DNA of 64,000 bases from NCBI GenBank assembly GCA_903845115.1, contig CAIMWE010000025.1, forward strand, positions 26,751-90,750. Reading direction: 5' to 3'. The translations under genes and the position numbers were made by a program. The DNA comes from an uncultured Acidobacteriota bacterium. GTDB lineage: Bacteria > Acidobacteriota > Thermoanaerobaculia > UBA5066. Below the pieces are notes generated by a model that saw only the letters and a list, made by a program, of their open reading frames with translations, was not told the origin of the DNA and searched no databases. Positions 28,250 through 54,934 of the stretch are shown here, in pieces (within the stretch, counting starts at the first letter, position 1; every line of letters begins with the position of its first letter).

Positions 28250-28259
28250 GGGGAGAGCG

Positions 28260-29141: not shown

Positions 29142-29154
29142 GCGGGAGGAAACG

Positions 29155-36401: not shown

Positions 36402-37670
36402 CTAGAACCCGAAGGACCAGCCGAGCTCGAAGTCCCACTGGTCCATCGTCAGCGCGATCTTCTGCTGGCCGGGAGCCTCCAGCGGGTTCGCCCCCGTGAT
36501 CGTGTTGGAGAGGCCCCGGATGATCGAGAGGTTCAGCTTGTTCCCCTTCGACACCAGGTACGACCCGCCGAGCGTCACGTGCTGCTCGATGACGCCGGGG
36601 GCCAGGATGTTCATGAAGACCTCGGACCCCGGGACCGGCTGCTTGCCCGTGGCGAAGCCGGCCCGCAGGGTGAGCTCGTCCGTGGCCTTCCACTCGAGGC
36701 CGAACTTGTAGACCGTCATGTTCTTCCAGCCGAAGCCCGCGCCGTTGTCGGCACCGAGGGGGGCCTGCATCAGGTTCGGCAGCATCGGGTTCCCGACGGA
36801 GGCTTCCTGCGAGAAGTAGATCTCCTGGACGTCCACGGCGAAGGTGATCTTGTCGGTCGGGTGGAGAGCGATCCCCACGGTCCAGTTCGCCGGGTCGTCG
36901 AAGTATCCGTGCTCGGCGAAGAGGCCCGCGTATTCCTTCAGCTTTCCGTAGGCGACCTCCGTCTGGTACGAGGCGCCGACCGTTAGCCACGGGGTCCACT
37001 TCCCCAGGTAGCCGATCCGGCCGCCGAACCCGAAGGAGGTCGCGTAGCCGTTCCCCGTCAGCTTCGTCGGGTCGGACGAGTAGCCGCCGAACGCCTCGAG
37101 ACCGTAGGCCTTGAACCGCTGCCAGGAGACCATCGGGCTGATGCCGACCGAGTGGTTCTCCCCGAACTTGTGGGCCCACGTCCCCACGACGTAGAACTTG
37201 CCCATGTCGACGCCGACCGGCTTCGACCCGTAGAAGATCGGCGAGTCGTACGTCGTGTTCATCCCGCCGTTACCGTAGATCGAGACGCCGATCGAGTCGT
37301 TCTTCCCCACCATCCAGTTCGCGCCCAGGTTCGGGACCAGGAAGACGCTCGTGTCGCTCTTGGTGGTGCCGGGGGTGAGGCCGAACGTCTTGTCGTAGCC
37401 CGACGGGTTCCCGGTCACCGTGAGCTCGCGGTTCGGGTTGAAGAGCGCGAGGCCAAGGTCGTACTCGCACCCGACGAAGACCATCGACGCCGGGTTCGTC
37501 GCCGCCGAGAGCGCGCTCCCCGGGACCGCGACACCGGTGCCGCCCATCCCCTTCGAGACCGTCCCGTAGCCCAGCATGAAGTACCCGTCCGTTGCCGTCG
37601 CGACGTTCGAAGCGACCGCGATCAGGCAAACCACCAGCGCTGCGGCGAAAGCCGTCCTGTTCCTGTTCAT
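36402..37670 (-). CDS. Outer-membrane hydrophobic-compound channel, FadL/TodX/OMPP1 family
   Basis: Signal peptide MNRNRTAFAAALVVCLIAVASNVATA, a 14-strand-barrel length (422 aa), and a C-terminus ending GWSFGF (aromatic beta-barrel signature). Confidence 0.8.
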   Translation of the reverse strand: MNRNRTAFAAALVVCLIAVASNVATATDGYFMLGYGTVSKGMGGTGVAVPGSALSAATNPASMVFVGCEYDLGLALFNPNRELTVTGNPSGYDKTFGLTPGTTKSDTSVFLVPNLGANWMVGKNDSIGVSIYGNGGMNTTYDSPIFYGSKPVGVDMGKFYVVGTWAHKFGENHSVGISPMVSWQRFKAYGLEAFGGYSSDPTKLTGNGYATSFGFGGRIGYLGKWTPWLTVGASYQTEVAYGKLKEYAGLFAEHGYFDDPANWTVGIALHPTDKITFAVDVQEIYFSQEASVGNPMLPNLMQAPLGADNGAGFGWKNMTVYKFGLEWKATDELTLRAGFATGKQPVPGSEVFMNILAPGVIEQHVTLGGSYLVSKGNKLNLSIIRGLSNTITGANPLEAPGQQKIALTMDQWDFELGWSFGF

Positions 37671-37697: not shown

Positions 37698-38882
37698 TCA
37701 GCAGCCGCCGCCCTTCTTTGGAGCCGAAGCGGCTCCTGCCGTTGACTTGATCTGGATCTGGACCGGTTCCGGAACGCTCCGGACTCCGGTGAATCGCTGG
37801 TACAGGGCGGTCCTCATCCGGTACTCGGCCACGAGGACCGGCGTCGCCTCCGCGGGCGGGGCCGGCTTCACGAGGTAGGCCGCCTGGAACGCCTCGTAGC
37901 CTCCCCGGAGGAGGGCTATCTTTCCAGGGAACTTCGCGGCTCCCTTCGGAAGGGAGGTCAGCTCCTTCTGCCCGTAGAGGACGAGGGTCCGCCCCGCGGG
38001 GAGCTGTGCCAGGAGGTCGTCGCCCTTGGTCCCCGCCGGCAGCGCGATGGCCCCCGGGATACGGTCCTTGGCCGCCACGGCCTCGCCGCGGACGTCGACC
38101 AGCCAGAAGCTCTCGGGAGCGGTGACGACCTCCTCGGCGAGGGCCGCGGCACCGATCTGATCGACCGGCCTGGCCGTCGCCACGGGCGGCGCCTTCGGGA
38201 GGAACGCGAAGACGAGGGAGACCGCCACGGTCGCGCCCAGGCCGCTGAAGACAGCGTTGCGGGTCTTCGGGTTCGCCTGCGGGACCGGGTCCCCGGTCTT
38301 CTTGCAGAAGATCGCCTCGACCTTCTCGGCCCCGATGAACGCTCCGATCGCCATCGCGACGACCCCGGCCGCCACGACCGCGGACGGCACGCCCAGCACG
38401 CCGGGGAGGGTGAGAACTCCCATCGCGCCGCTCAGATAGAACTTCTCGATCGGGCCGTAGAAGGCGCCGAAGAGAAGGCTCCCGCCCATCATCCCGCCGA
38501 TCGTCAGGAGCGCGTCGACGTTGCCGGACGCCGTGGCGACGACCCCGGTCCCCGGACAGTAGCCCGAGACGATGAAGCCGATCCCGAAGAGGAACCCGCC
38601 GACGATCTGCGGCCCGAGGAAGGTCTCGGGGATCGTCACCAGCGACAGGTCGAGGAGGCCGGTCGCCGCGAGGAGCGCCATCCCGGCGGCGCAGGTCGCG
38701 ACGGCCGAGAACATCACCTTCAGGACCCGCATGTTCGTCAGGTAGAACTGCGCCGTCAGGATCCGGGCGCTCCCGAAGCCGCCGCGCTCGAGCGTGAAGC
38801 CGAACGCGATGCCGACGAGCGTCCCGACGACGTAGCCGGTGTAGCCGCCGAAGAGGTCGTGGCCGAAGAGAGGGAACGTCAT
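37698..38882 (-). CDS. YeeE/YedE-family sulfur-compound transporter half fused to a C-terminal Cys-less rhodanese-like domain; ends -KKGGGC
   Basis: YeeE/YedE CPG motif (IVSGYCPGTG) in a 4-5 TM region. The C-terminal domain has the rhodanese fold pattern (FWLVDVRGEA...IPGAIALP...LVLYGQKELTS...LLRGGYEAF), with the catalytic Cys position occupied by Gly. The terminal tetrapeptide is GGGC. Confidence 0.65.
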   Translation of the reverse strand: MTFPLFGHDLFGGYTGYVVGTLVGIAFGFTLERGGFGSARILTAQFYLTNMRVLKVMFSAVATCAAGMALLAATGLLDLSLVTIPETFLGPQIVGGFLFGIGFIVSGYCPGTGVVATASGNVDALLTIGGMMGGSLLFGAFYGPIEKFYLSGAMGVLTLPGVLGVPSAVVAAGVVAMAIGAFIGAEKVEAIFCKKTGDPVPQANPKTRNAVFSGLGATVAVSLVFAFLPKAPPVATARPVDQIGAAALAEEVVTAPESFWLVDVRGEAVAAKDRIPGAIALPAGTKGDDLLAQLPAGRTLVLYGQKELTSLPKGAAKFPGKIALLRGGYEAFQAAYLVKPAPPAEATPVLVAEYRMRTALYQRFTGVRSVPEPVQIQIKSTAGAASAPKKGGGC

Positions 38883-38886
38883 CGCC

Positions 38887-39414
38887 TCACCTCCACTGCT
38901 TCCGGAGAAGGGGCGCGAAGAGGTAGGCCCCGGCGAAGAACATCATCATGAAGATCCAGGAGCCGACCGAGAGGGCCGCCCCTCCCGTCAGCGCCTGCCC
39001 CGAGGCGCAGCCTCGCGCGAGGCGGGCGGCGACTCCCATCAGGACGCCCCCCAGCACGGCGAGGAGCAGTCTCTGTGTGCGGGCGATCCGCGGTCCCTTC
39101 TGGACGTTCAGCTTGAGCCTGCCCCCCGAATAGGCGGCCAGGAAGCCGCCCAGGAGGACGCCGAGGACCTCGAAGACCAGCCAGTCGTCGAGGATCTTCT
39201 TCCCGGGACCGGCGTACGGCGCGAAGTAGGCGTTCGTCTCGACGGCGTGCGGCGCGACGCACCACGCGGCGCCGATCGCGAGGCGGTTCGTCGCTCCGGA
39301 GGCCCCGAGCCCGAACCCCATGACGAGGTACGAGGCGAGGAGGACGAGGCCGAGGACGGCCCCGGCGACGTAGGGGTTCCAGAGAGGGCGTTCGACCGGT
39401 TCGATCTGTTCCAT
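38887..39414 (-). CDS. YeeE/YedE-family transporter, small half (175 aa)
   Basis: Start at ATG 39414 (MEQIEPVERPLWNPYVAG...). Conserved ARGCASGQ motif. The upstream 196 codons of track ORF 38887..40005 are alternate-frame over psrC. Confidence 0.65.
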   Translation of the reverse strand: MEQIEPVERPLWNPYVAGAVLGLVLLASYLVMGFGLGASGATNRLAIGAAWCVAPHAVETNAYFAPYAGPGKKILDDWLVFEVLGVLLGGFLAAYSGGRLKLNVQKGPRIARTQRLLLAVLGGVLMGVAARLARGCASGQALTGGAALSVGSWIFMMMFFAGAYLFAPLLRKQWR

Positions 39415-39434
39415 CTGTTCTCTCTCCAGCGCCT

Positions 39435-40403
39435 TCAGGGGATCAGCCGGAACGCGGAATCCTGCCCCGCCGCCAGGAGGATGGCGCGGAGCGCCAGCCC
39501 TCCCACGAGGACCAGGGCGGGGGTGACCAGGGTGAACGGCAGGTGGCGCTTCGCCTCCACCGCCTCCATGAGGAGCGGCACGACGAGGCCGAGGACGACG
39601 ACGAGGGACCAGAACACGGGGGTGTACGGCCCGCCGAGGAAGTTGGAGGCCGCGAACCGCGCGCTCTCGGTCCCGTACCCGAAGCCGATCAACATCAGGA
39701 GAATCAGCACCAGCTCGGTCCCGATGGCGTTCACGTCCCAGCGGACGATCCGCTTCCGCTCCTCCTCGTGGAGGCCCGTGAGGAGGAGGAACGCCGCGCC
39801 GGTCGAGAGGCCCGACACCAGGAAGAGGGGCCCGAGGAGGGCGCTGTTCCACTGGAGGCGCGCCGCCATCGTCCCCAGGAGGAGGCCGGTGTAGACGCCG
39901 AGGCCGAGGCCGATGAAGAAGACCCCGGTCAGGATCTCGCGGCGGCGCTCGATCGCGTGCTTCTCGACCCGGTCGTACAGCCCTTCGAGGTTCTTCGGGA
40001 CCCACGACCGGACGAAGCTCCGGCCGGAGTCGTCGAGCGAGCCGAGGCCGAAGACGAAGGCGGCCGGGTAGACGGCCACCAGGATCCAGGATCCCCAGGA
40101 CATGGGCGAGGCGAGCTGGAAGCGCGTGTAGAAGCGCCAGACATGGAACGGGTACTCGAGGTCGAGGAAGAGCGCCCCCATGCCCAGGGAGAGGATCCCG
40201 AGGGCGACGAAGGGGGCGGTCCGGAAGATCGGCGAGGAGGGCTTTCCGTGCCGCAGCTCCAGGAGCGCCGACAGAGAGAGGATCCCGGCCACCATCCCTC
40301 CGAGGAAGAGATAGACCGTGATCTGCCAGCCCCAGATCGCGAGCCCCGGGTCGATCAGGTGGTTGGCGCGGGTGGTGACCGATTCGAGGAGTGTCGTGTT
40401 CAT
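39435..40403 (-). CDS. Polysulfide/thiosulfate reductase membrane anchor, NrfD/PsrC family
   Basis: Eight predicted TM helices, 322 aa, NrfD-family profile (WGWQITVYLFLGGMVAG...). Confidence 0.8.
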   Translation of the reverse strand: MNTTLLESVTTRANHLIDPGLAIWGWQITVYLFLGGMVAGILSLSALLELRHGKPSSPIFRTAPFVALGILSLGMGALFLDLEYPFHVWRFYTRFQLASPMSWGSWILVAVYPAAFVFGLGSLDDSGRSFVRSWVPKNLEGLYDRVEKHAIERRREILTGVFFIGLGLGVYTGLLLGTMAARLQWNSALLGPLFLVSGLSTGAAFLLLTGLHEEERKRIVRWDVNAIGTELVLILLMLIGFGYGTESARFAASNFLGGPYTPVFWSLVVVLGLVVPLLMEAVEAKRHLPFTLVTPALVLVGGLALRAILLAAGQDSAFRLIP

Positions 40404-40413
40404 CGCTGCCGCC

Positions 40414-40962
40414 TCACACCAGGAAGAAGACGTTCGGGTCGGCCCCCGACTCGGGGTGGTTCACCTTCGACTTCCGCTTCCTCAGGATCTGCGACACGGC
40501 GGACGCCGGGTCGTTGCGGTCGCCCAGGGTCAGCGTCCCCGTCGGGCAGACGCCGACGCAGGCCGGCTGCAGCCCCTTCTGGACCCGGTGGAGGCAGAAG
40601 GTGCACTTGTCGACGTACCCCTTCGGGTGGACGTACCGGGCGTCGTACGGGCAGCCCGCGATGCAGGCCTTGCAGCCCGTACACTTGCCGTGGGTCACCA
40701 GGACCACCCCCCCCTCGGCAATGTTGCTGGCGCCGGTCGGGCAGACCGAGACGCAGGGGGCGTCGGAGCAGTGGTTGCACCGTTCCGACCGGATCTCGGC
40801 CGAAAGGTCCGGGAACTCGCCGCGGACCTCCTCGACGATCCAGTCGCGGCAGAACCCGTCCGGCACGTCGTTCTCGCTCTTGCAGGCGAGGACGCACGCC
40901 TTGCACCCGACGCAGGTGCGCGTGTCGACGGTCATCGCGTAACGCTTCTTGCTCGCGCTCAT
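40414..40962 (-). CDS. 4Fe-4S ferredoxin-type electron-transfer subunit (PsrB/PhsB/DmsB family)
   Basis: CVGCKACVLAC, CNHCSDAPCVSVCP, CTGCKACIAGCP and CTFCLHR...CVGVCP motifs. Confidence 0.85.
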   Translation of the reverse strand: MSASKKRYAMTVDTRTCVGCKACVLACKSENDVPDGFCRDWIVEEVRGEFPDLSAEIRSERCNHCSDAPCVSVCPTGASNIAEGGVVLVTHGKCTGCKACIAGCPYDARYVHPKGYVDKCTFCLHRVQKGLQPACVGVCPTGTLTLGDRNDPASAVSQILRKRKSKVNHPESGADPNVFFLV

Positions 40963-40965
40963 CGC

Positions 40966-43179
40966 TCAGGCCCTCTCGACCGTGACGAAGTTGACGCTCA
41001 TCCCGGTCGACCCGGCCAGAGGGTCGACGGCGATCTTCGTGACGAGCCTGGAGTCGTCCATCCCTCGCCCCTTCGCGAACTTCAGCCCCGGGCTCGAATG
41101 GCCGTAGCCGTGGACGACGAAGACGCAGTCGTGACGGATCCGCTGGGTCGCCTTGAGCCGCACGGGCTCGGAGCGGACGCCGTCCTGGTTGACGAGAACC
41201 ACCCTGTCGCCGTTCGAGAGGCCCCTCTCCCGCGCGACCTTGGCGCTCAGCCAGACCTCGTTCTCGTTGGTGACCTCGGAGAGGAAGCGGTTGTTCGTCG
41301 TCCGCCCGAAGGTGTGCGTGGGGGTCCGGCCGAAGAGGAGCCGGAACTGTCCGTCGGCCGGCTGGGGATGCCGGGTGTATTCCGGCATCGGGGAGGCTCC
41401 GGCCTCGGCCATCCTCTTCGAGTAGAGCTCGATCTTCTTCGAGGGGGTGGCGAAGGTCAGCTCGAGGCCGTCCTCGGTGGTGACCGGGACTCTCTTCCCC
41501 CGGATGACTCCCTTGGCCTTCAGGAGGTCGAAGTCGTAACCGCCCTTCCGGAGCCGCGCCTCGACCATCTTCCCCGCGTCGTCCCAGGGGAAGTACGCCC
41601 CGAGCTCCATCCGGTTCGCGAGCTCCTTCGCGATCCACCAGCCCGGCTTGCTCTCGTAGAGCGGGTCGACGACCGGCTGCCGGATCGCGAGGAACGGCTC
41701 GCGCCAGGGGGTCGGCCCGGCGTCGTCCCACCGCTCGAGGTAAGTCGCCTCCGGGAGGACGACGTCGGCGTAGCCGGTGATCTCGGCCGGGAGGACGTCG
41801 ATGGCGACCATCAGGTCGAGGTGCTGGGCCGCCTCGATCACCTGCTGGCGCTGCGGGAGCGCCTGGATGAGGTTCGTGCCGTAGACGATCCACCCCTTGA
41901 TGGGACATCCGCTGGTCATGATCTTGCCGGGCACGGTCGCGTCGCAGACGCCGTGCGAGAGGACCTCGTCGGCGAACGGGTAGACCGTGCCGTCGGGGTG
42001 ATCCTGGGCCGTCTTCGGCGGCGCCGCGTAATCGGGACAGGGGTACTTCGGCACGGGCATCGAGGCGGGGATGAAGATCCCGCCGCGCCGGCCCCAGGAG
42101 CCCAGGAGCGCGTTGAGAATCGCGATGGCGCGCGACCTCTGGGTGTCGTCGCCGTACCAGGTCGTGTGCCGGCCGGGGTGGACGAGCGAGGCCGGGCGGG
42201 CCCCGGCGATGAAGCGGGCCGTCTCGACGATCTTCTCCGGCGGGATCGTCGTTTCTGTGAAGGCCCACTCCGGCGTCTTGTCCTCCAGGTGCTTCCTCAG
42301 CTCCGGGAGGCCGGTCGCGTACTTCTCGAGGTAGGCCGCGTCGTAGAGCTCCTCCTTCACGATCACGTGCATCCAGGCGAGGAGGAGGGCCAGGTCGGTG
42401 CCCGGCTTGATCGGGAGCCAGTGGCGGGCCTTCCCGGCGGCCGTGGAGAACCGGGGGTCGACGACGACCACCTCGGCCCCCTTCGCGATCGCCCTGGCGA
42501 AGTCCTGCACCTGGGTGTTGTGCATGTTCTCGCCCAGGTGCGACCCGATGAGCGTCAGGACCCTCGAGTTCTCGATGTCGAGGACCTCCGGGGAGCCGAG
42601 CGACGACCCGAAGGTGAGGTTGAAGCCGACCTCGCGGGGGCCGCGGCACTGGCCGTACGACGGGGCGGTCACGTTCCCGCTCCCGTAGGCGAAGAGGAGG
42701 TGCTTGAAGAACGACCCGCCGTAGCCGTGCGAGAAGAGGGCCACCTTGTCCGGCCCGCAGTCCCTCTTGATCTTCATCAGCTTTTCGGCCGTGAAGTCGA
42801 GGGCCTTCGCCCAGGAGACCTCCTCGAAGTCCTGCCCGCCCCGCTTGTTCGATCTCCGGAGGAGGGGCTTCTTCAGACGGTCGGGGTCGTACAGGAGGCC
42901 CATGCCGCCGGTCCCGCGCGGACAGAGGTGGCCCCGGGAGAGCGGGTGGTCGGGGTTGCCGACGATCTTCGTCACCCGGCCGTTCCGGACGTGGGCCAGG
43001 ACGCCGCACTTCCAGAAACAGAGCTCGCAGAACGTCGGGACGACCTTGTCACCGTCGGTGTTCGGGTCTTCCACCGCGTCCCGGTCGAGCCCCCAGAACT
43101 TGTTCACGAAGCCGGATCCGACGGTTGCGGCCCCGACGGTGGCTCCGGAGATCTTGATGAATTCGCGCCGGCTCGTCAT
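40966..43179 (-). CDS. Tat-exported molybdopterin oxidoreductase catalytic subunit, polysulfide/thiosulfate reductase (PsrA/PhsA) family
   Basis: GGAGGTGG RBS precedes ATG 43179. Tat signal MTSRREFIKISGATVGAATV and the N-terminal FeS motif CELCFWKCG. MopB domains are similar to the second paralog at 51157. Confidence 0.85.
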   Translation of the reverse strand: MTSRREFIKISGATVGAATVGSGFVNKFWGLDRDAVEDPNTDGDKVVPTFCELCFWKCGVLAHVRNGRVTKIVGNPDHPLSRGHLCPRGTGGMGLLYDPDRLKKPLLRRSNKRGGQDFEEVSWAKALDFTAEKLMKIKRDCGPDKVALFSHGYGGSFFKHLLFAYGSGNVTAPSYGQCRGPREVGFNLTFGSSLGSPEVLDIENSRVLTLIGSHLGENMHNTQVQDFARAIAKGAEVVVVDPRFSTAAGKARHWLPIKPGTDLALLLAWMHVIVKEELYDAAYLEKYATGLPELRKHLEDKTPEWAFTETTIPPEKIVETARFIAGARPASLVHPGRHTTWYGDDTQRSRAIAILNALLGSWGRRGGIFIPASMPVPKYPCPDYAAPPKTAQDHPDGTVYPFADEVLSHGVCDATVPGKIMTSGCPIKGWIVYGTNLIQALPQRQQVIEAAQHLDLMVAIDVLPAEITGYADVVLPEATYLERWDDAGPTPWREPFLAIRQPVVDPLYESKPGWWIAKELANRMELGAYFPWDDAGKMVEARLRKGGYDFDLLKAKGVIRGKRVPVTTEDGLELTFATPSKKIELYSKRMAEAGASPMPEYTRHPQPADGQFRLLFGRTPTHTFGRTTNNRFLSEVTNENEVWLSAKVARERGLSNGDRVVLVNQDGVRSEPVRLKATQRIRHDCVFVVHGYGHSSPGLKFAKGRGMDDSRLVTKIAVDPLAGSTGMSVNFVTVERA

Positions 43180-43224
43180 GCCCACCTCCAAGAGAAGACC
43201 CAGAATCGGTTCACGACTCTCCTC

Positions 43225-43240
43225 TTCAAGAAGCGGGCCA
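43225..43240 (-). promoter_or_regulatory. Sigma54-like -24/-12 motif TGGCCC-N5-TTGAA upstream of psrA (non-canonical -12)
   Basis: The reverse complement of 43225-43240 is TGGCCCGCTTCTTGAA, about 48 nt upstream of the psrA ATG. The same 16-mer pattern recurs upstream of the octaheme operon (48917-48934). GG-N10-GA rather than GG-N10-GC. Confidence 0.3.
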
Positions 43241-43436
43241 CCCACCAAACAACAGCTTTTCCCAACAAATCCGGTCGTATTGCCGGTTCACATTCCGCGC
43301 GGCTGAAACAACTCGTTTCGTCTGAAACATCGTGGTTCAGGCCGGGCCCTCCCGCTCGGTCCGACGCTCTCCGAGCCTCGCCTTCCGGTGCCGACAGCCC
43401 GGGATCCGCGTGTTCAGATGGATCGCGATCGTTATC

Positions 43437-44816
43437 ATGACCCGGATGCCCATCGCTCACTCGGTCGACGTTCCCGGCTGGTCCAACCTCGAGACCGTCT
43501 TCGAATCCCTCGGGAGAGTCCTGATCACGCTCGATGCCCAGTTCGAGATCATCCGCGTCAGCCGGAACCTGGACCAGCTCGCCGGGGCCGGCGCTTCGGC
43601 CACCGCGATCGGGCAACCGGTCGAGACACTGATCGGCGCCAGGCTCTTCGGCCCGTCCGACACGCTCCGGGAATCTCTCCGTCAGGGGCACCGCGTGGAA
43701 GGACGCCGAGGGGTCCTTCTCTGCGGTAGCGAAGACGCCCGCCTCGTCTCGATCACGACCGCCCCCGTCTCCGAGGTCGTCTACAACATGTGCGACCCGA
43801 GGGCCAGGTTCATCGTCGTCGTCAGGCCCGCCGAAGAGGACGACGTGATGCTCCAGAGCGCGCACGCCTCTCATGGCCTCGTCTCGAGGTCGCCACAGAT
43901 GCGCCGGATCATCCACGTGGTCGAGTCGCTCCACCACAGCGACGCGACCGTCCTGATCACCGGGGAGAGCGGCACGGGCAAGGAGGTGATCGCCCGGGCG
44001 ATCCACGCCCGATCGCCCCACAGCGCCGGTCCGTTCGTCGCCGTCAACTGCGCCGCCTTGCCGGGGGAGCTGCTGGAAACGGAGCTGTTCGGGCACGTCC
44101 GGGGCGCCTTCACGGGCGCTGTGAAGGACCGGATCGGCCGGGTCGAGATGGCCGCCGGGGGCACCCTCTTCCTCGACGAGGCCGCCGACATCCCGCTTCC
44201 GGTACAGGTGAAGCTCCTGCGGGTCCTCCAGGACCGAGTCTACGAGCGAGTGGGGGAAAGCACCTCCCGGCCGCTGAACGCCCGCGTGATCGCCGCGACC
44301 AACGGCGACCTCGCCGCGGCGATCCGTGAAGGCCGGTTGCGCGAGGACCTCTACTACCGGCTCAAGGTCGTCCCGATCCACGTCCCGCCGCTCCGGGAGC
44401 GGCCGGAGGACATCGAGACGATCGCCCAGCATCTCCTCGCCCGGATCGGCGGACGGGAGGGCCGGGCTCTCTGGCTCTCCGAGGACACGCTCGACCTGTT
44501 TCGCGGCTACCCGTGGCCCGGCAACATCCGGGAGATGGAGAACGTCCTGGAGTATGCCGTGGCTCTCTGCCGCGGTCAGACGATCCACGTGGACGACCTC
44601 CCTCCAGAGATTTGCTCCGCCCCGGCCAGCGCGGCTCCGGCTGCGCCGGTTCCGACCGAACCCGGCGAGGCCGCGCCCGGCTCTCCCGAAGCCCGCCTCA
44701 TCCAGGCGACCCTCGAGCGAAACCTCTGGAACCGATCCAGAGCCGCGAGAGAGCTCGGGATGAGCCGGAGCACCCTCTGGCGCAAGATGCGGGAGATGCG
44801 GATCGGGACTACCTGA
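43437..44816 (+). CDS. Sigma54-dependent transcriptional activator with N-terminal PAS/GAF-like sensor domain
   Basis: The N-terminal ~150-aa sensor domain is followed by the AAA+ core (TGESGTGKEVIARAIH; GAFTGA in FGHVRGAFTGAV) and the C-terminal HTH AARELGMSRSTLWRKM. It is divergent from the psrA operon. Confidence 0.8.
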   Translation: MTRMPIAHSVDVPGWSNLETVFESLGRVLITLDAQFEIIRVSRNLDQLAGAGASATAIGQPVETLIGARLFGPSDTLRESLRQGHRVEGRRGVLLCGSEDARLVSITTAPVSEVVYNMCDPRARFIVVVRPAEEDDVMLQSAHASHGLVSRSPQMRRIIHVVESLHHSDATVLITGESGTGKEVIARAIHARSPHSAGPFVAVNCAALPGELLETELFGHVRGAFTGAVKDRIGRVEMAAGGTLFLDEAADIPLPVQVKLLRVLQDRVYERVGESTSRPLNARVIAATNGDLAAAIREGRLREDLYYRLKVVPIHVPPLRERPEDIETIAQHLLARIGGREGRALWLSEDTLDLFRGYPWPGNIREMENVLEYAVALCRGQTIHVDDLPPEICSAPASAAPAAPVPTEPGEAAPGSPEARLIQATLERNLWNRSRAARELGMSRSTLWRKMREMRIGTT

Positions 44817-44833
44817 CCGCCAGGGAAGAGTGC

Positions 44834-46030
44834 TCAGCACCCGCCCTGGACCTTCTTTTCCACCTTGGGCTTCTTCGCTCCGCCCGCCTTGGCGGCCTGG
44901 ACCTGCTTTAGGATCTCGGTCTTCGCCCCTTCCCGGAATCGCCTCACGTCGCCGTCCCATCGGCTTCCGGTCGAGACGAAGGCGGTGGGGGCGAGGATCG
45001 TCCCGTTGAAGGCCGGGATTCCCCCCTCGAGGATGGCGAGGTTCTCGTAACCCAGCTTCTTGAGAAGGAAGTAGGCCGCGCGCTCCTGGCCCTCGCTATC
45101 ACCCACGATCAGCTTCTTCACGTGCCTTTGCGAGAGGGATGACGCGGCGTCCTTCCCCAGGAGCTCCGGCAGCGAGATGTTGACCGAGCCGGGAAGCGAG
45201 AGGACGGAGAAGGCTGCGGCACTCCTCACGTCGACGATCTTCAGGCGCGGCTCGTGGTCGACGATCCGGAAGGCGAGCTCGTCGGGGGTCATCCGGACCA
45301 CCGGGTTCGCCGGGATCGCAGCCTCCCTCGTGGCTCCTGACAACAGGCGGGTCCGGTAGTCGGGGATGAGGGCCAGGACGACCGCGAGCGCCACGAGGCC
45401 GGCTCCGAAAGAGACGTGCGTCCGGACCGGGAAGGTGAGGGAAGGCGCATGGGCCGGGTCCACCAGCTTCTCGACCTTCGCCGCCGCCGCGAAAGCCCCG
45501 ACGGCCGCCACGACGAGAAGAACGATGAAGAGCCCTTGCGAGATCCCGAGCGACGAGAAGACCTTGACCGGCCCGAGCGACGTGGAGTCGTTGAAGTGCT
45601 TCAGGAGCGGGTAGGCCTCGCCGAAGGCGAAGACCCCCACGACGCCGCCGAGGACGAAGAAGATCGCGTCGATCTTCCCGATCGCCGCCGCGCAGATGCT
45701 GGTCCCGGGGCAGTAGCCTCCGAGGATGAAGCCGAGTCCCATGATGATTCCGCCGACAGCGGCCGGGGCGAGCCACGTCGGGTTCACGAAGATCGCATCC
45801 GTGTCGAGCCACCCCGCCGAGCCGAGGATCAGGACGCCGGCCATCGCCGTGAGGGCCGCGGTGAAGAAGACGCGCAGGACGGTGAAGTCGTATCCGTAGA
45901 AGAGGCCGGCGAGCCGCCGGGACGACGAGAAGCCCGCCTGCTCGAGGACGAAGCCGAAACCGACCCCGAGGACGAGCGCGACGACCAGGTTGAGCTGGTC
46001 GGAGATCAGGTCCGGTGCGAAAGGCGCCAT
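44834..46030 (-). CDS. YeeE/YedE half fused to Cys-less rhodanese-like domain; ends -KKVQGGC (paralog of 37698..38882)
   Basis: ILGGYCPGTS motif. The C-terminal rhodanese-like domain (RIVDHEPRLKIVDVRSAAAF...LIVGDSEGQERAAYFLLKKLGYENLAILEGGIPAF) has no catalytic Cys. The C-terminal tripeptide is GGC. Confidence 0.65.
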   Translation of the reverse strand: MAPFAPDLISDQLNLVVALVLGVGFGFVLEQAGFSSSRRLAGLFYGYDFTVLRVFFTAALTAMAGVLILGSAGWLDTDAIFVNPTWLAPAAVGGIIMGLGFILGGYCPGTSICAAAIGKIDAIFFVLGGVVGVFAFGEAYPLLKHFNDSTSLGPVKVFSSLGISQGLFIVLLVVAAVGAFAAAAKVEKLVDPAHAPSLTFPVRTHVSFGAGLVALAVVLALIPDYRTRLLSGATREAAIPANPVVRMTPDELAFRIVDHEPRLKIVDVRSAAAFSVLSLPGSVNISLPELLGKDAASSLSQRHVKKLIVGDSEGQERAAYFLLKKLGYENLAILEGGIPAFNGTILAPTAFVSTGSRWDGDVRRFREGAKTEILKQVQAAKAGGAKKPKVEKKVQGGC

Positions 46031-46034
46031 GGCG

Positions 46035-46565
46035 TCACTTCCCCTGCTTCTGGGCGATCCAGAGCCCGCGAGCCAGATACGCGAACAGGTACCCGGACCC
46101 GAAGATCGCCATCATCGTGACGAACCCGGCGGTCGAGAGGACCGCCATGCCGCTGAGGGCCGCGCCGCTCGTGCAACCCCGCGCGAGCTGCGCGCCGATC
46201 CCGAAGAGGGCGCCCCCGAGAATCGCGAAGAGCCACCGGGTCTTCGTGGCGACCCGGGGCCCGGCCTCGGTCGTCCAGCGGAGGCGGTCGGAGACCAGGC
46301 CGGAGGCGAAGGCCCCGATCAGGACGCCGGCCACCTCGAAGACGAGCCAGCCCTTGAGCGGGCTCTCCTTCCCCGCACCGACGTACTGACTGTAGAAGGG
46401 CGAGCGGGCCGCGTGCGCCGGGGCGACGGCGTCGACGGCTGCCACCACCACGTTCTTCACCGCGCCGCTGGCCCCCAGGCCGCGCCCGGTGACGAAAATC
46501 GTCGCGAGGAGGACGAGGCCGAGGAGGAACCCGGCCAGGTAGGGGTTCATCACCTTGTTGTTCAT
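46035..46565 (-). CDS. YeeE/YedE-family transporter, small half (paralog of 38887..39414)
   Basis: Start at ATG 46565 (MNNKVMNPYLAGFLLG...), with the ARGCTSGAALSG motif. The upstream part of track ORF 46035..47024 is alternate-frame. Confidence 0.65.
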   Translation of the reverse strand: MNNKVMNPYLAGFLLGLVLLATIFVTGRGLGASGAVKNVVVAAVDAVAPAHAARSPFYSQYVGAGKESPLKGWLVFEVAGVLIGAFASGLVSDRLRWTTEAGPRVATKTRWLFAILGGALFGIGAQLARGCTSGAALSGMAVLSTAGFVTMMAIFGSGYLFAYLARGLWIAQKQGK

Positions 46566-47236
46566 TCGTTCCCTTTCACGAGGACGAGCACGGGCGTTCC
46601 GGCGGCGGGAGGCGTCGCGTGGACCGGTTCGTCTCTTTCCAGGTCCTCCCATCCGGTCAGCATCGCCTTGAGGTTCGCGGTGACGGTGTGCCCGGTCGTC
46701 ATCAGATAGAGGTGCGCGATGAGGAAGGCCAGGAGGAGAAAGGCGCCCGCCGTGTGGACGAGCGCGATCAGCTCGAGCCCCCCGACGTTCAGCCCGACGA
46801 CCTCGTGCCGGGCCGGATAGCGGTAGAACATGTAGAGCAGGCCGGAGACCGCGACCACGGGGATCACGAGGAGCTTCAGCCCGGCGTACGTCAGCTTCTG
46901 GAGCGGGTTGAGCTTGCTGAGGACCGTCTTCTTCGTCGGGTGCGGGGCGTTCCGGAAGATCCCGAAGAGGTAATAGTCGGCCTGGGCCCGCAGGTTCTTC
47001 CAGGTCGGGACGTACTGGCGCCACTCTCCCGTCGTCGCGTGCCAGAAGATGGCGAAGACGATCAGGACGAGGAACCCCTTCGCCGCCAGGCCGTGGACCC
47101 GCACCGCCTGCTCGAAGCCGAAGAAGCGAATCGACCCGTGGATCTCGAAGCCGGTGACCGCGAGCAGCGCGATCAGGGCTGCCTGGCTCCAGTGCCAGAA
47201 GCGCTCGAACGCCTTGTAGACGTACTGCCTGTTCAT
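46562..47236 (-). CDS. Membrane b-type dihaem cytochrome (PhsC / Ni-Fe hydrogenase cytochrome b family)
   Basis: Four TM helices with conserved His (FWHWSQ, RVHGLA, IFWHATT, LVHTAG, IAHLYLM). It overlaps the octaheme gene stop, which is operon-like. Confidence 0.6.
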   Translation of the reverse strand: MNRQYVYKAFERFWHWSQAALIALLAVTGFEIHGSIRFFGFEQAVRVHGLAAKGFLVLIVFAIFWHATTGEWRQYVPTWKNLRAQADYYLFGIFRNAPHPTKKTVLSKLNPLQKLTYAGLKLLVIPVVAVSGLLYMFYRYPARHEVVGLNVGGLELIALVHTAGAFLLLAFLIAHLYLMTTGHTVTANLKAMLTGWEDLERDEPVHATPPAAGTPVLVLVKGNE

Positions 47237-47237
47237 C

Positions 47238-48803
47238 TCACTCTCCTCCGTTCCGGTGTCCGGCCATGAACCGGGCTCCCCCGTGGACCACGACGCCGAG
47301 AAGGGTCAGGCCGAGCAGGCCCTGGCCGATCCCGTCCAGCCACCCCTTGCGGTCCCGGCCCGGCATGTAGAAGCCCTTCAGCGCCGCGAGCCGTCCCTTT
47401 TCCCTCGTGTGGCACTCGTTGCACCGGACGGTCTCCGCCTTCGGCGACACCATGTGGTTGAGGGGCCAGCTCATCTCCGTGCTCGCGAATCCGTAGCTTC
47501 CGCTGTAAGGGAGGTCGATCTCGTGCATCCCCGCGATCGCCGCCTTGTTCCAGTCGAATTCGCCCCAGAAGCCGCCGTCACCCGGTGTGGACGAGTAGAG
47601 CTTCGGCTGGATGACGTACGAGTACTTCGTGTCGTAGATCTGGCGGCCACGGTGGACCTTGACCGGGATGATCTTGGAGTCGGGGTCGTCGTAGGCCCCG
47701 TGCAGCTCGTTCATCCTGAGGGGCACCGACGGGTCGAACTTCTCCCCGACGAGGTAGTGCGAGGCAGTGCCGTTGAACCAGGCGTATTCCGGCTGGACGT
47801 TCGTGCCCCAGACGAACGAACCCTTGATCGACATGTAGACGTCCGTCCCCTTTGCGTCCTTTTCCTCGTATGGCTTTCCGTCCCTGAGCTTCCCCGCGGT
47901 CGACCAGTCCCAGACGAGCTTGGTCGGGTTGACCTTGGCGTACCTGGGGATGTGACAGGCCTGACAGGCCACCTTGTAGCCGTGGTCGTTCAGGACGTCG
48001 TCTGCGTGGGGCATTCCCGAGTGGCACGTCTCGCACTCCACGCGGTTCCGGTTCATGGAGGAGATCGAGTAGGCCTTGCCGAGGATCTGGTGCTTCTCGG
48101 CGGTGTGGCAGTCGACGCACTGCAGGTCCACGCCGTCCGAGCCCATGTGGACGTCCACCTCGCGGGAGGGGTCGAACTGGGCCTTCTCGAGGTCCCCGTG
48201 CTTGACGTTGTTCCCACCGCCGCCGAAGAAGTGGCAGGTCCCGCAGTTGGTCCGGGTCGGCTTCCCCACGTGCTGGGCGACGTTCGCGAGGTCGATGCCG
48301 GAGTCGGGCATCCCCGCCCCGCCCGATTTCTTCACGTAGGTCGAGGTTCCGTCGTGGCAGGCGAGACAGTCGACGTTCAGCGGATCCTTGAAGTCGAAGT
48401 TCGCGTCCCCCCAGCCGTACCCGATGTGGCACTTGTTGCAGCTGGCCTCGCTCCCGGAGATCCCGATACAGAAGTTGTTCAGGACGTTCTTCTTCCCGAC
48501 CGGGCGAATCCCCTTCCCCTCGACGTACTCGCTCCGCTCCCAGTTCCAGTGGGTCGAGGCCATCACCTCGACCTGCCTCCCGTTGTGGCAGGAGATGCAG
48601 GCCGCGGTCACGTCCTGGGGCCGCTTGAACGGCGCCTTCAGCTGGGCGAACTTGGAGTGGTCCACCGACGGCTTCGCCTTCTTGGCGAGGTGCTGCTTCA
48701 GCTCCTCGAGCGGCGTCAGCTCTCGTCCCGGACGCCGCAACGCGACGAAGACCATGCCCCCAAGGGCCCCGATCAAGAGCAGCGAGAACAGTATGCGTTT
48801 CAT
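47238..48803 (-). CDS. Octaheme c-type cytochrome, octaheme tetrathionate reductase (OTR) family
   Basis: Signal/anchor MKRILFSLLLIGALGGMVFVAL. Eight CxxCH motifs (CISCH, CNKCH, CLACH, CGTCH, CVDCH, CETCH, CQACH, CNECH). About 520 aa with a C-terminal hydrophobic helix. Confidence 0.7.
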   Translation of the reverse strand: MKRILFSLLLIGALGGMVFVALRRPGRELTPLEELKQHLAKKAKPSVDHSKFAQLKAPFKRPQDVTAACISCHNGRQVEVMASTHWNWERSEYVEGKGIRPVGKKNVLNNFCIGISGSEASCNKCHIGYGWGDANFDFKDPLNVDCLACHDGTSTYVKKSGGAGMPDSGIDLANVAQHVGKPTRTNCGTCHFFGGGGNNVKHGDLEKAQFDPSREVDVHMGSDGVDLQCVDCHTAEKHQILGKAYSISSMNRNRVECETCHSGMPHADDVLNDHGYKVACQACHIPRYAKVNPTKLVWDWSTAGKLRDGKPYEEKDAKGTDVYMSIKGSFVWGTNVQPEYAWFNGTASHYLVGEKFDPSVPLRMNELHGAYDDPDSKIIPVKVHRGRQIYDTKYSYVIQPKLYSSTPGDGGFWGEFDWNKAAIAGMHEIDLPYSGSYGFASTEMSWPLNHMVSPKAETVRCNECHTREKGRLAALKGFYMPGRDRKGWLDGIGQGLLGLTLLGVVVHGGARFMAGHRNGGE

Positions 48804-49102: not shown

Positions 49103-49495
49103 CTAATGCCCCCCGCAGGTGCCTCCGTGCGAATGGCTCCCATGGCCTGCGCAGGCCGACTCCGCGCCCAGCAGCGTTTTCTCCCCGGATACGAGCGAGG
49201 CCAGACAGGCCCTAACCGTCGGGCCGGTCCCGCGAATCACCTGGATCCCGGCGGCCTGGAGCCGCTGGAGGGCCCCACCGCCAATCCCGCCGACGACGCA
49301 GGCGTCCACGGTCCGGTCCCGGAACGCGTCGAGGGGGCGGCAAGCCCCGTGCTCGTGAGCCTCCGAGGCGCGGGGCACGAACTCTGCTCCGCCAGTTTCG
49401 GTGTCGATGAAGAGGAAGCCGGGCGCGGAGCCGAAATGTCCCGAGAGCGGGCTGTCGAGACCTGCATCACTGGTGACGGGGAAGCAAATGTTCAT
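49103..49495 (-). CDS. NifX/NifB-type dinitrogenase FeMo-cofactor-binding domain protein (PF02579 family) with Cys/His-rich tail
   Basis: ...DSPLSGHFGSAPGFLFID...VDACVVGGIGGGALQRLQAAGIQV matches the NifX/NafY/DUF fold. The tail is CAGHGSHSHGGTCGGH. Confidence 0.55.
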   Translation of the reverse strand: MNICFPVTSDAGLDSPLSGHFGSAPGFLFIDTETGGAEFVPRASEAHEHGACRPLDAFRDRTVDACVVGGIGGGALQRLQAAGIQVIRGTGPTVRACLASLVSGEKTLLGAESACAGHGSHSHGGTCGGH

Positions 49496-49680
49496 GGATC
49501 GATTCTCCCATTCGGGCGCTCCGGTTCACCGGGTGCCCCTGGCAGCCTGCTTGCAAGAAGCGGTCCGGACCCCTGTCTTTCTCGTCGGGTACTCGTCTCG
49601 AAAACGGAACTGACCCGCTCTTCGCCGGAGCGCCGGGCCACCCTTGGTAATAAGATTCCACCGAATATGGAGGGTTGATC

Positions 49681-51024: not shown

Positions 51025-51156
51025 AGACCGAATAGTCTCTGTAATCGTCGGCCGTGGGCCCCCGGGCCGCCGGTCTCCCCCCGTGATCAGGGGAGGCCGG
51101 CTCCGGGGCCTGCGCCGGACCGGCGGTTCCCCTTGAGCGGCAGCGAGGTCGTCACG

Positions 51157-53361: not shown

Positions 53362-53374
53362 AGGGAGAAGCCCA

Positions 53375-54920: not shown

Positions 54921-54934
54921 CCTACCATCGCCGG

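Follow-up and report, generated by a model that had tools for sequence, protein, structure and literature searches.

Several described systems resemble parts of the locus analyzed here. In PmpAB and YedE1E2 (Cupriavidus pinatubonensis, Serratia), two adjacent genes encode the halves of a sulfur channel, each half having a Sulf_transp fold and one essential pore Cys (equivalent to C91 and C293 of StYeeE); PmpA and PmpB, of about 140 aa apiece, comprise four TM helices and no other parts. The polysulfide-sulfur transferase Sud (Wolinella succinogenes, PDB 1QXN), a soluble protein of the periplasm with a single rhodanese-like domain, is thought to supply PsrA with polysulfide sulfur; it holds sulfur on the Cys of its rhodanese active-site loop. 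The split pair YedE1E2 imports zero-valent sulfur via its two essential Cys (PMC10812762). In thiosulfate uptake by TsuA-TsuB (YeeE-YeeD), an extra protein-borne Cys lengthens the Cys relay of the channel, and channel-helper fusions exist. SoxY binds sulfur substrates on a swinging arm, through the Cys of its C-terminal GGCGG / VTIGGC motif (PMC6067878; PMC11237559), and SoxYZ has been suggested to pass sulfur on to a YeeE-like importer (PMC11582611).

The window, i.e. the whole stretch of 64,000 nt that was analyzed, carries two paralogous split YeeE/YedE pairs on the minus strand, S1-L1 and S2-L2, as claimed in the original prediction (Table 1). Sulf_transp was found by Pfam in both small halves and in both large halves (58 bits in L1, 57 bits in L2); L1 and L2 share 38% identity across their first 160 residues (E=5e-31), and S1 and S2 share 47%. 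Beyond what PmpB has, L includes an H7 equivalent, one more TM helix and, outside the membrane, a module of 170 aa composed of a dead rhodanese and a terminal Cys. In addition, the S-L genes belong to respiratory operons (OTR, Psr), whereas PmpAB/YedE1E2 lie beside a persulfide dioxygenase. In the AlphaFold models, each L protein has six long TM helices, two short helices, an alpha/beta domain and a long helix, followed by a tail that is disordered (pLDDT<50); the overall pLDDT is 79.9 for L2 (below 50 at residues 386-398) and 75.4 for L1 (below 50 throughout the tail). S2 aligns with residues 234-319 of StYeeE, with C131 opposite C293, and the RGCTSG motif reaches a conservation of 95% or more across 79 sequences. 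Among 77 aligned L proteins, the only invariant Cys are C107 in the pore loop GYCPGT and the terminal Cys. Our searches turned up neither a curated family nor a paper on this architecture; it is undescribed, as had been supposed.

The alpha/beta domain of L scores 46 bits (E=6.5e-12) against the Pfam Rhodanese model in L2 and 21.9 bits, slightly below the cut-off of 22.2, in L1. By Foldseek, it matches rhodanese domains only (TMt up to 0.81, for L2), and the L profile matches the Sud structure 1QXN (E=9.5e-5). The claim that the domain lacks the catalytic Cys was confirmed: the residue at that position is Gly in both proteins (LVLYG in L1, LIVG in L2, where Gly310 is opposite the catalytic Cys of 6MXV in the profile alignment) and G, A, S, D or L in homologues, and the L1 and L2 domains contain no Cys at all, shifted ones included. 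Unlike Sud, L has Gly in the active-site loop and a C-terminal Cys, and it is attached to a channel.

The predicted -GGC termini are present in both proteins, and their conservation is far beyond chance. All 120 L2 homologues end in xGGC and 118 of 120 L1 homologues in GGGC, the remaining two being truncated. In the L2 subfamily, whose genomes range in GC from 0.30 to 0.72, 72 of 78 reading frames end in GGC and two more in GGCS or GGCGV, and the L2-type tail consensus K-K-[IV]-Q-G-G-C is 95-100% conserved. More widely, G-C lies within the last 4 residues of 120 of the 149 representatives of 50%-identity clusters, and many L relatives terminate in GGCG or GGCGG. The last 3-7 residues are constant and the preceding linker varies freely across homologues: the terminal Cys, essentially invariant, is under extreme selection while the linker drifts. 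The tail had been described as Lys-rich, which holds for L2; that of L1 is Ala/Pro-rich with one KK.

Five complete relatives of 664-700 aa have no tail. They keep the dead rhodanese and have added a tandem rhodanese with a catalytic loop of the CRTGHQAS type, which occupies the end of the protein where the tail sits in other members. The tandem rhodanese encoded in the window is related to the C-terminal part of one of them, P0363 (34% identity over 276 aa, E=5e-43). Tail and catalytic rhodanese are thus an either/or choice, and the proposal that the tail Cys replaces the rhodanese Cys gains support from this pattern, although the carrier role itself is one that we infer.

The cytochrome encoded next to S2-L2 is a clear relative of Shewanella oneidensis OTR (PDB 1SP3, E=3.9e-138) and scores 588 bits against TIGR04315 (cut-off 375). 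S adjoins L in 77 of 77 loci, and the order OTR-cyt b-S-L is intact in all 66 loci with enough sequence; in several phyla, the S-L module is a constant component of OTR operons. The Shewanella otr encodes the only OTR studied biochemically and adjoins a monohaem cytochrome gene (SO4142) in the literature, where we found no mention of S-L neighbours, and it seems to be without them, which speaks against the arm proposed below. Judged from sequence, the psrABC genes upstream of S1-L1 encode a polysulfide/thiosulfate-reductase-type complex. This operon was said to end with L1; however, a FadL-type gene follows on the same strand. The order psrABC-S-L-FadL is conserved in Holophagales loci, and the FadL-type gene is conserved after L in L081/L082. 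The membrane side, the SoxY GGCGG arm precedent, the fixed membership in OTR operons and the occurrence without a reductase had not been part of the original prediction.

Table 1. Features of the two S-L loci and their surroundings in the window.
Feature	Position	Strand	Description	Evidence
FadL/TodX-family outer-membrane channel gene	36402..37670	-	directly downstream of L1	Toluene_X 68 bits
L1	37698..38882	-	394 aa, L2 paralogue with identical architecture, C-terminus -PKKGGGC	
L1 terminal Cys394 codon	37701-37703	-		
L1 tail	37701..37766	-	residues 373-394, disordered, Ala/Pro-rich, ending P-K-K-G-G-G-C	
L1 rhodanese-like domain	37872..38162	-	residues about 241-337	Pfam, AF2, Foldseek
L1 pore Cys109	38556-38558	-		
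S1	38887..39417	-	176 aa, small half paired with L1	Sulf_transp 86 bits
S1 Cys137	39007-39009	-	in RGCASG	
psrABC	39435..43248	-	predicted polysulfide/thiosulfate-reductase-type complex	
psrC	39435-40403	-	NrfD	Pfam
psrB	40414-40962	-	4Fe-4S	Pfam
psrA	40966-43248	-	Mo-bisPGD, TAT signal	Pfam
Sigma-54-dependent transcriptional activator	43332..44816	+	between both operons	Sigma54_activat 226 bits, HTH_8
L2	44834..46030	-	398 aa, large half of split YeeE/YedE (PmpAB-type) channel: YeeE H1-H7 equivalents and extra TM6, Cys-less rhodanese-like domain, helix, basic tail -KKVQGGC	
L2 stop codon	44834-44836	-	TGA	
L2 terminal Cys398 codon	44837-44839	-		
L2 arm	44837..44956	-	helix 359-382, then disordered basic tail 383-398	
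L2 rhodanese-like domain	44993..45298	-	residues about 245-346	Pfam, Foldseek
L2 membrane core	45368..46000	-	residues 11-221, six TM and two short re-entrant helices	AF2
L2 pore-loop Cys107	45710-45712	-	in GYCPGT, matches StYeeE C91 / PmpB Cys	
S2	46035..46565	-	channel small half, YeeE H8-H13 equivalents	Sulf_transp 71 bits, profile positions 175-308
S2 Cys131	46173-46175	-	in RGCTSG	
Cytochrome b (Ni_hydr_CYTB / b561 type)	46562..47236	-	membrane, OTR module	Pfam 95 bits
Octahaem c-type cytochrome	47238..48803	-	OTR family, N-terminal hydrophobic anchor or signal	
Tandem rhodanese	49675..50586	+	N-terminal signal-like sequence, catalytic loop YCTTGHQAS	Pfam

We lean towards the view that the locus encodes a sulfur channel to which a covalent sulfur-carrier arm of the SoxY/Sud kind is tethered. 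S and L would jointly form a YeeE/PmpAB-type channel, S providing the periplasm-facing Cys (RGC[TA]SG, the StYeeE C293 equivalent) and L the cytoplasmic-side Cys (GYCPGT, the C91 equivalent). The extra TM helix after the YeeE H7 equivalent would bring the L chain back to the periplasm, where the dead rhodanese-like domain, a helical or Ala/Pro-rich spacer and a disordered, basic tail of 12-22 residues with C-terminal Gly-Cys would lie. That sulfur is carried covalently, which partners the arm serves and which way sulfur flows is what we infer: the terminal thiolate would bear a sulfur species such as a persulfide, polysulfide or thiosulfonate on a swinging arm, like the C-terminal GGCGG Cys of SoxY and the Sud loop Cys that serves polysulfide reductase. 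The arm would move this sulfur among three sites, namely the active site of the redox enzyme encoded alongside it and located in the periplasm (PsrA or the OTR-type octahaem cytochrome), a rhodanese of the periplasm at loci that have one, and the Cys at the periplasmic mouth of the channel to which it belongs. As in TsuA-TsuB, an extra protein-borne Cys would lengthen the channel relay; however, TsuB has a TusA fold and is placed in the cytoplasm at the channel exit, whereas the helper part of L is rhodanese-like with a tail Cys and is predicted to be on the periplasmic (entry) side. L shares with SoxY, a periplasmic protein, a Cys in a Gly-flanked motif at the extreme C-terminus, sulfur-binding in SoxY, and a flexible arm, which in SoxY enters partner active sites. 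Nevertheless, SoxY has an Ig-like beta-sandwich fold, is soluble, pairs with SoxZ and serves SoxAX, SoxB and SoxCD, whereas L has a rhodanese fold, is anchored to a channel in the membrane and has no SoxZ partner; no sequence relationship between the two is detectable beyond the motif, and this likeness of 3-6 residues speaks against the arm, as does the missing rationale for an import channel serving a reductive respiratory enzyme. In terms of geometry, it is plausible that the arm shuttles between the transporter and the reductases, as predicted, since the domain and tail are predicted to be periplasmic like PsrA (TAT) and OTR. Overall, the original prediction is partly supported: apart from the operon end and the L1 tail, its sequence-level claims all held, and carrier function is the part that stays conditional.

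The domain and tail are very probably periplasmic, beside PsrA and the octahaem cytochrome, because of the YeeE topology with six TM helices, the charge bias of the family and a three-way split of the system in Ignavibacteriales. StYeeE is N-out/C-in, and its H7 crosses from outside to inside (PMC7449682). Among 144 representatives, K+R is 0.25 at the N-terminus and 0.37 in the TM2-3 loop, both pointing outside, and 4.5 in the TM5-TM6 loop, pointing inside; the post-TM6 segment has a net charge of -0.26, and the TM5-TM6 loop is the more positive of these two in 128 representatives. Ignavibacteriales have a natural break of the gene within the TM5-TM6 loop. A separate protein of 219 aa, which would be signal-anchored, there comprises TM6, the dead rhodanese and a tail with the ending KKREGC, and has an N-terminal MLLKAFAEIPARKR followed by one TM. 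This stand-alone form is a family with [KR]EGC termini in 116 of 118 members and a terminal Cys in 117 of 118 full-length versions, and the flank N-terminal to its single TM is the more positive one in 115 of 118. Around TM6 of the L2 subfamily alone, K+R is 1.1 in the loop and 3.3 in the post-TM6 segment, an ambiguous positive-inside signal, and the side is therefore deduced from the number of helices, from the family at large and from the stand-alone form. The opposite placement, with a cytoplasmic domain and tail whose Cys would be a channel-exit acceptor, i.e. a fused TsuB/YeeD substitute and "fourth cysteine" of the YeeE pathway, is very unlikely in our judgement. It would fit the docking of YeeD at the cytoplasmic face of YeeE and the natural YeeE-YeeD fusions (PMC11073785), the strongly basic tail and the fairly basic post-TM6 segment of the L2 subfamily; however, an N-out chain with six TM helices has its C-terminus outside, the flank charge of the stand-alone form indicates signal-anchor orientation, the extra TM is conserved although direct attachment after H7 would have sufficed, and what the tail-less relatives use instead is homologous to tandem rhodaneses that are secreted. 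In P0267, the domain is followed by an ArsR HTH, which would also imply a cytoplasmic location and hence count against the arm, but this protein is without the tail motif and resembles a frameshifted merge of two genes.

Instead of carrying cargo, the terminal Cys might be a redox gate or sensor that pairs reversibly, as a disulfide, with the Cys of S that faces the periplasm, or binds metal, and so plugs or regulates the channel in response to the redox or sulfur status of the periplasm. The length of the tail would suffice for it to reach the channel mouth, StYeeE cysteines readily form disulfides (PMC7449682), DsbD/thioredoxin genes are present at some loci, and S-L pairs also occur without any reductase, e.g. 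as MarR-rhodanese-S-L. We consider such a gate unlikely, as it would leave unexplained the substitution of the tail by a catalytic rhodanese, the strict OTR or Psr linkage and the SoxY-like Gly-Gly-Cys context, and a reach of 40-60 residues would be needless. The arm and channel might alternatively handle selenium, as selenotrisulfide or perselenide from selenite reduction: there are weak matches to selenium-metabolism-linked YedE-family models, the Psr/Phs clade includes the respiratory selenite reductase Srr, which is encoded alongside proteins with rhodanese domains, the tandem rhodanese of the window weakly matches ExtH of a selenite/tellurite reduction operon, and the genome uses selenocysteine. 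Selenium cargo is nonetheless quite improbable, since every match to selenium-linked models is far below cut-off, PsrA scores best against the thiosulfate reductase model PhsA (475 bits, below the cut-off of 694), the characterised pair YedE1E2 moves zero-valent sulfur, and the otr of an Acidobacteriota was induced by tetrathionate in sediment microcosms (PMC8528874). Finally, the terminal TGC is directly followed by TGA in both L genes and the genome encodes a selenocysteine-containing formate dehydrogenase, which would allow a thioredoxin-reductase-like Cys-Sec redox tail. This idea has next to no chance of being right: read-through is refuted by the stop codons of homologues, which are TAA (44), TGA (23) and TAG (14) and track genome GC, and no in-frame stop lies near past the TGA, the L1 frame entering the next gene and the L2 frame the convergent regulator.

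A distant member with a GGCG tail has the OTR-cyt b-S-L module together with DsbD-like and thioredoxin genes. Genes of this sort might hold a thiol in the reduced state in the periplasm; only about 8 of 80 loci have them close to the module, which speaks against the arm.

Operons A and B both lie on the minus strand of a respiratory island of 70% GC. Each encodes a split channel of YeeE/YedE type, in which a small half (S1 and S2, respectively) is followed by a large half (L1 and L2) consisting of a membrane part, a Cys-less rhodanese-like domain and a tail ending in Cys. According to Pfam, operon A specifies a polysulfide/thiosulfate-reductase-type (Psr/Phs) complex, wherein the A subunit combines a TAT signal with Mo-bisPGD domains, and the B and C subunits are of the 4Fe-4S and NrfD types. 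The PhsA equivalog model gives PsrA 475 bits, under its cut-off of 694 bits, and therefore leaves the substrate specificity of the complex undefined. The operon B cytochrome belongs to the octahaem cytochromes of the tetrathionate reductase (OTR) family, with 588 bits against TIGR04315 (cut-off, 375 bits) and homology to PDB 1SP3 at E=3.9e-138. The whole analysis is computational, and the structure models of L1 and L2 are single-chain AlphaFold models.

Coordinates of the genes of operons A and B and of their neighbors in the window
Feature	Coordinates	Strand	Characteristics
Operon A, FadL/TodX-family outer-membrane channel gene	36402-37670	-	Directly downstream of L1
Operon A, L1	37698-38882	-	Sulf_transp N-terminal half + Rhodanese
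Operon A, S1	38887-39417	-	Sulf_transp C-terminal half
Operon A, psrC/NrfD	39435-40403	-	NrfD-type C subunit, Pfam
Operon A, psrB	40414-40962	-	4Fe-4S B subunit, Pfam
Operon A, psrA	40966-43248	-	TAT signal
Sigma-54 activator gene	43332-44816	+	Separates operons A and B
Operon B, L2	44834-46030	-	Sulf_transp N-terminal half + Rhodanese
Operon B, S2	46035-46565	-	Sulf_transp C-terminal half
Operon B, b561-type cytochrome b	46562-47236	-	
Operon B, OTR-family octahaem cytochrome c	47238-48803	-	TIGR04315, PDB 1SP3
Tandem rhodanese with N-terminal signal-like sequence (MIMRKGIVVLALALLAATVPLFA)	49675-50586	+	Catalytic loop YCTTGHQAS

The Sulf_transp profile (PF04143; cut-off, 27 bits) is covered in a complementary manner by L1 (58 bits, profile positions 1-174) and S1 (86 bits, 176-310), and likewise by L2 (57 bits, 11-195) and S2 (71 bits, 175-308). 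S1 and S2 share 47% identity, and L1 and L2 share 38% across their membrane parts. When both L models were compared with the PDB in Foldseek, all hits were rhodanese domains and YeeE 6LEO was not among them; therefore, the evidence for a channel consists of the Pfam matches and of a phmmer alignment between S2 and StYeeE, the YeeE of the crystal structure. Equivalents of both pore-loop Cys of StYeeE are present, that of C91 in L and that of C293 in S: the GYC107PGT motif of L is invariant among 77 aligned sequences, and across 79 sequences the RGC131TSG motif of S, which lines up with C293 on the periplasmic side, shows conservation of at least 95% (residue numbers from L2 and S2). The equivalent of StYeeE C22 is replaced by Ser, as it is in PmpAB. 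Neither L nor S scores above the cut-off of any NCBIfam model, and Pfam gives generic domains only. In addition, the Arg in the LC loop of S (StYeeE R215) does not track the partner enzyme: the residue there varies among R, F, N, Q and S with no pattern. The halves of PmpAB have about 140 aa, four TM helices and no extra domain, a description that fits S, whereas L, with six TM helices and an extramembrane module of 170 aa, represents a variant architecture. Together, L and S are a member of the YeeE/YedE superfamily resembling PmpAB, and a putative transporter of thiosulfate or zero-valent sulfur. The split pair YedE1E2 imports zero-valent sulfur via two essential Cys (PMC10812762).

The original prediction had described the large halves as carrying a rhodanese-like domain devoid of the catalytic Cys and ending in -GGC, and Pfam, the AlphaFold models with Foldseek, and the alignments agree with this description. 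For L2, PF00581 scores 46 bits and the Foldseek TMt values reach 0.81; for L1, the Pfam score is 21.9 bits vs a cut-off of 22.2 bits, and the TMt values to rhodanese domains are 0.53-0.68. The position of the catalytic Cys, which in catalytic rhodaneses opens the active-site loop, is aligned with Gly in L1 and L2, and with G, A, S, D or L in homologues. In L1 and L2 the domain is entirely free of Cys, and the only invariant Cys among the 77 aligned L proteins are the pore-loop C107 and the last residue.

An exhaustive profile search returned 8,387 cluster representatives (E<=1e-3) from Acidobacteriota, Bacteroidota, Ignavibacteriota, Calditrichota and others, showing that this channel-and-arm architecture is common. 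Gly-Cys occurs within the last four residues in 120 of the best 149 of these representatives, typical ends being ...GGC, ...GGCG, ...GGCS, ...GGCGG, ...REGC and ...RRRGC. Closer to the window, xGGC terminates 120/120 homologues of L2, and GGGC terminates 118/120 homologues of L1, where both exceptions are truncated. When 78 frames of the L2 subfamily, from genomes with GC contents of 0.30-0.72, were read to the stop codon, 72 ended in GGC and two in GGCS/GGCGV, the rest being broken. The terminal motif is preceded by a basic stretch (mean K+R 3.2 and D+E 0.4 over nine residues), and the spacer ahead of the tail is free to vary: L1-family proteins have an Ala/Pro-rich spacer, L2-family proteins a helical one rich in Lys. 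In both L models, the last 13-22 residues have pLDDT <50.

The Cys codon of both L1 and L2 is followed by TGA (TGC TGA), and selenocysteine is used by this genome, as the formate dehydrogenase gene at 25055-28249 has a classic in-frame TGA. Selenocysteine read-through was considered for the tails and rejected: the codon after Cys in homologues is TAA (44), TGA (23) or TAG (14), indicating that these are ordinary stop codons. The formate dehydrogenase gene itself belongs to a formate dehydrogenase-N-type operon (25055-30636, plus strand), wherein the TGA of the alpha gene at 25757-25759, within HQARV*HGPTVASL...FGRGAMTN, is the selenocysteine codon, and the alpha gene is followed by genes for an FeS subunit (28260-29141), a cytochrome b (29083-29844) and an FdhE-like CxxC protein (29845-30636).

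Thirteen full-length representatives of the L family lack the terminal Cys. Eight of them are long forms which keep the Cys-less rhodanese domain and the next helix and then continue into a tandem rhodanese; in the five that are complete, the last domain has a canonical catalytic loop, reading VHCRTGHQAS, TSCRTGHSAS, LYCRTGQAAT or VYCRTGHQAS. Two others are clearly artefactual, one being a frameshift-like fusion and one a read-through, and the remaining three (P0359, P0371 and P0382) have neither the tail nor an extra rhodanese, the Arg/Ser-rich end of P0382 being frameshift-like. With a tail Cys or a catalytic rhodanese at the C-terminus, nearly all family members thus terminate in a reactive Cys, whichever of the two kinds it is. 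This either/or pattern is the strongest sequence-level support for the idea, put forward in the original prediction, that the tail Cys functionally replaces the rhodanese Cys. The rhodanese domain would have lost its catalytic Cys while the protein gained one on the tail, and sister proteins carry an added catalytic rhodanese instead, which would make the L family a clear natural case of an active-site residue moved onto an arm. The tandem rhodanese of the window is related to the tail-replacing domain of the long forms (34% identity, E=5e-43). It also gives a weak, sub-threshold match to ExtH of a selenite/tellurite reduction operon.

The side of the membrane on which the arm lies decides the mechanism, and this point was left unsettled by the original prediction. 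The crystal structure of StYeeE has its N-terminus outside and its C-terminus inside; helices H1-H6 start and finish outside, and H7 runs from outside to inside (PMC7449682). The L models show six long TM helices and two short re-entrant helices, that is, the equivalents of H1-H7 plus one extra helix, and the C-terminal module is therefore expected outside. The charges in 144 representatives point the same way: K+R and D+E are 0.25 and 1.2 at the N-terminus, 0.37 and 1.4 in the TM2-TM3 loop, and 4.5 and 1.3 in the TM5-TM6 loop, the 24 residues past TM6 have a net charge of -0.26, and the TM5-TM6 loop is more positive than the post-TM6 segment in 128/144, although the latter comparison is ambiguous for the L2 subfamily by itself, a weak point of the argument. 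The orientation of S is complementary, with a basic TM2-TM3 loop and a basic C-terminus. The opposite placement might be read from P0267, a representative in which L is fused to an ArsR HTH; however, this protein is probably a frameshifted merge, as the tail motif is gone and an Arg-rich, out-of-frame-like stretch stands ahead of the HTH.

The best evidence on the membrane side comes from a natural experiment in Ignavibacteriales/Melioribacteraceae, where two genes replace L after psrABC-S at three loci (L051, 14164-15436; L054, 14149-15409; L056, 14341-15613). The first product has 203 aa and ends within the basic TM5-TM6 loop; the second has 219 aa, starts with MLLKAFAEIPARKR, and continues with one hydrophobic helix, the Cys-less rhodanese domain and a tail ending in ...KKKREGC. 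The psr-linked channel is thus in three pieces, and the OTR-linked L2 gene of the same loci remains fused. The stand-alone rhodanese-tail form constitutes a family of at least 322 proteins, and among 118 full-length members the N-side flank of the single helix is the more positive one in 115, as in a signal anchor, and the end is [KR]EGC in 116. A periplasmic side also agrees with the resemblance of the tail-replacing domain to the signal-bearing rhodanese of the window, and with a similar signal-bearing rhodanese upstream of S-L at another locus. On the basis of the topology, the charges and the signal-anchored family, a periplasmic location of the dead rhodanese domain and the arm is predicted with good confidence. 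The periplasm is also the compartment of the TAT-exported PsrA and of any c-type cytochrome.

Gene linkage was examined in 80 species-level genomes with an L2-type gene, the counts being taken from loci with enough sequence. One of the loci (L025) belongs to a MAG assigned to Ignavibacterium album. S adjoins L in 77/77, and the complete order OTR-cytochrome b-S-L is kept in 66/66. A remote module (L083) shows the same order, with a multihaem-cytochrome b fusion after OTR and a GGCG tail, and upstream of it (884-3748) lie genes for an ArsR-type regulator, two thioredoxins, a DUF6132 protein and a DsbD_TM-thioredoxin fusion. These thioredoxin/DsbD genes could supply reductant for a periplasmic thiol, in parallel to the SoxV/SoxS-type upkeep of SoxY. 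They are not fixed neighbours of the OTR module: they are present in about 8/80 loci, and thioredoxin-like genes border it in about 7 of the 80 other loci. Nor is a secreted tandem rhodanese a fixed neighbour, none being found within 8 kb in the 80 loci, and a tandem rhodanese is fused or adjacent to L only in some branches. Homologues of a NifX/NifB-like small gene (Pfam Nitro_FeMo-Co), which in the window separates the OTR operon from the secreted rhodanese gene (49103-49495, minus strand), occur close to the OTR module at three loci (L013, L050 and L066).

The L1-type genes of Holophagales are arranged as psrABC-S-L-FadL, as in the window; the FadL/TodX-family gene takes the position downstream of L1 at L081/L082 (9280-10533) and L074 (9567-10790). 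This channel may be a putative entry route for hydrophobic elemental sulfur to the periplasm. Elsewhere, S-L is found alone with a MarR regulator and a secreted rhodanese, or beside a cysteine-desulfurase-like gene. These other contexts indicate that the device is a general one, of which the OTR and Psr operons are two uses. On a 2.9-kb contig (L089, 264-2577), S and L come directly after a PsrB-like 4Fe-4S gene, an intervening NrfD/PsrC gene being absent, which raises the question of whether S-L can be the membrane partner of a Psr-type enzyme.

The tail of L resembles the C-terminus of SoxY, defined by a Gly-flanked Cys (GGC/GGCGG) at the extreme end of a flexible peptide (PMC11237559, PMC6067878), as seen from the motif counts and the pLDDT values below 50. 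However, SoxY has an Ig-like fold, a SoxZ partner and a sox context, whereas L is rhodanese-like and neighbours OTR/cytochrome b or psrABC. A search with the 34-residue GGCGG-type tail region against PDB sequences gave nothing at E<=10, and homology of the tail to SoxY was rejected, the resemblance being at motif level only. TsuB/YeeD differs from L in its TusA/SirA fold with a CPxP Cys and its cytoplasmic location, whereas L has no TusA domain in Pfam, is rhodanese-like and is predicted to be periplasmic; YeeD provides an extra Cys at the opposite end of the YeeE pathway (PMC11073785). The structure of Sud (1QXN) is matched by the L profile at E=9.5e-5. In Wolinella, Sud acts for polysulfide reductase.

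Each of the three components, the YeeE-family channel, the rhodanese domain and the Cys-tipped carrier arm, is already known by itself. Full-text literature searches (YeeE, rhodanese, OTR, Psr, Acidobacteriota) found no description of this architecture, and what appears to be new is a channel with a built-in, probably periplasmic arm of predicted carrier function. In the literature on Shewanella otr, SO4142 is listed as a monohaem cytochrome and no mention of S-L was found. Outside Gammaproteobacteria, OTR is encoded beside a predicted Cys-arm carrier and a sulfur channel, making L a concrete partner candidate for OTR-type octahaem cytochromes. The physiological substrate of OTR is still disputed twenty years after its structure (PMC12949373), and this open role is the main reason why the combination of arm and channel is of interest.

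The alignments and models establish a PmpAB-like split channel with both pore Cys, an extra TM helix and an extramembrane Cys-less rhodanese domain, together with a flexible basic tail bearing a near-invariant terminal Cys, in fixed linkage to periplasmic sulfur redox enzymes. By analogy with known carrier arms, the terminal thiolate of L would bind sulfur species covalently, and the loaded arm would swing among the partner enzyme, the periplasmic rhodanese, if present, and the periplasmic Cys of S, from which a YeeE-type Cys relay would take the sulfur inward. Such an arm would physically link periplasmic sulfur chemistry to membrane import, a step that for SoxYZ and SoxT is so far a postulate; SoxYZ has been proposed to pass its sulfur on to an importer of the YeeE type (PMC11582611). 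Operon A is most simply read as having its own Sud built in, with the FadL-type porin letting in hydrophobic sulfur.

For operon B, we speculate that the arm captures tetrathionate/thiosulfate as a thiosulfonate and that OTR acts on the bound form. More tentatively, OTR-cytochrome b-S-L could work as a machine of four parts, with OTR acting physiologically not on a free ion but on a sulfur adduct on the C-terminal Cys of L, either a Cys-S-S-SO3- thiosulfonate formed by thiol attack on tetrathionate or a persulfide. The assembly would correspond to a SoxAX/SoxY tethered to the membrane, with cytochrome b connecting it to the quinone pool and the YeeE-type channel to the cytoplasm, and, if true, it could explain the poor in vitro tetrathionate/thiosulfate activity of isolated OTR. 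In environmental genomics, S-L beside otr or psr may mark respiration of sulfur intermediates better than the reductase genes alone.

The window also contains a third respiratory module (51133-56773, plus strand), which encodes a molybdopterin oxidoreductase (742 aa), a 4Fe-4S subunit, a b561-type cytochrome b and a 612-aa multihaem cytochrome c. Meanwhile, a very hydrophobic multi-pass membrane protein of 1002 aa with a Pro/Ala-rich N-terminal region is encoded at 30656-33664 on the minus strand.
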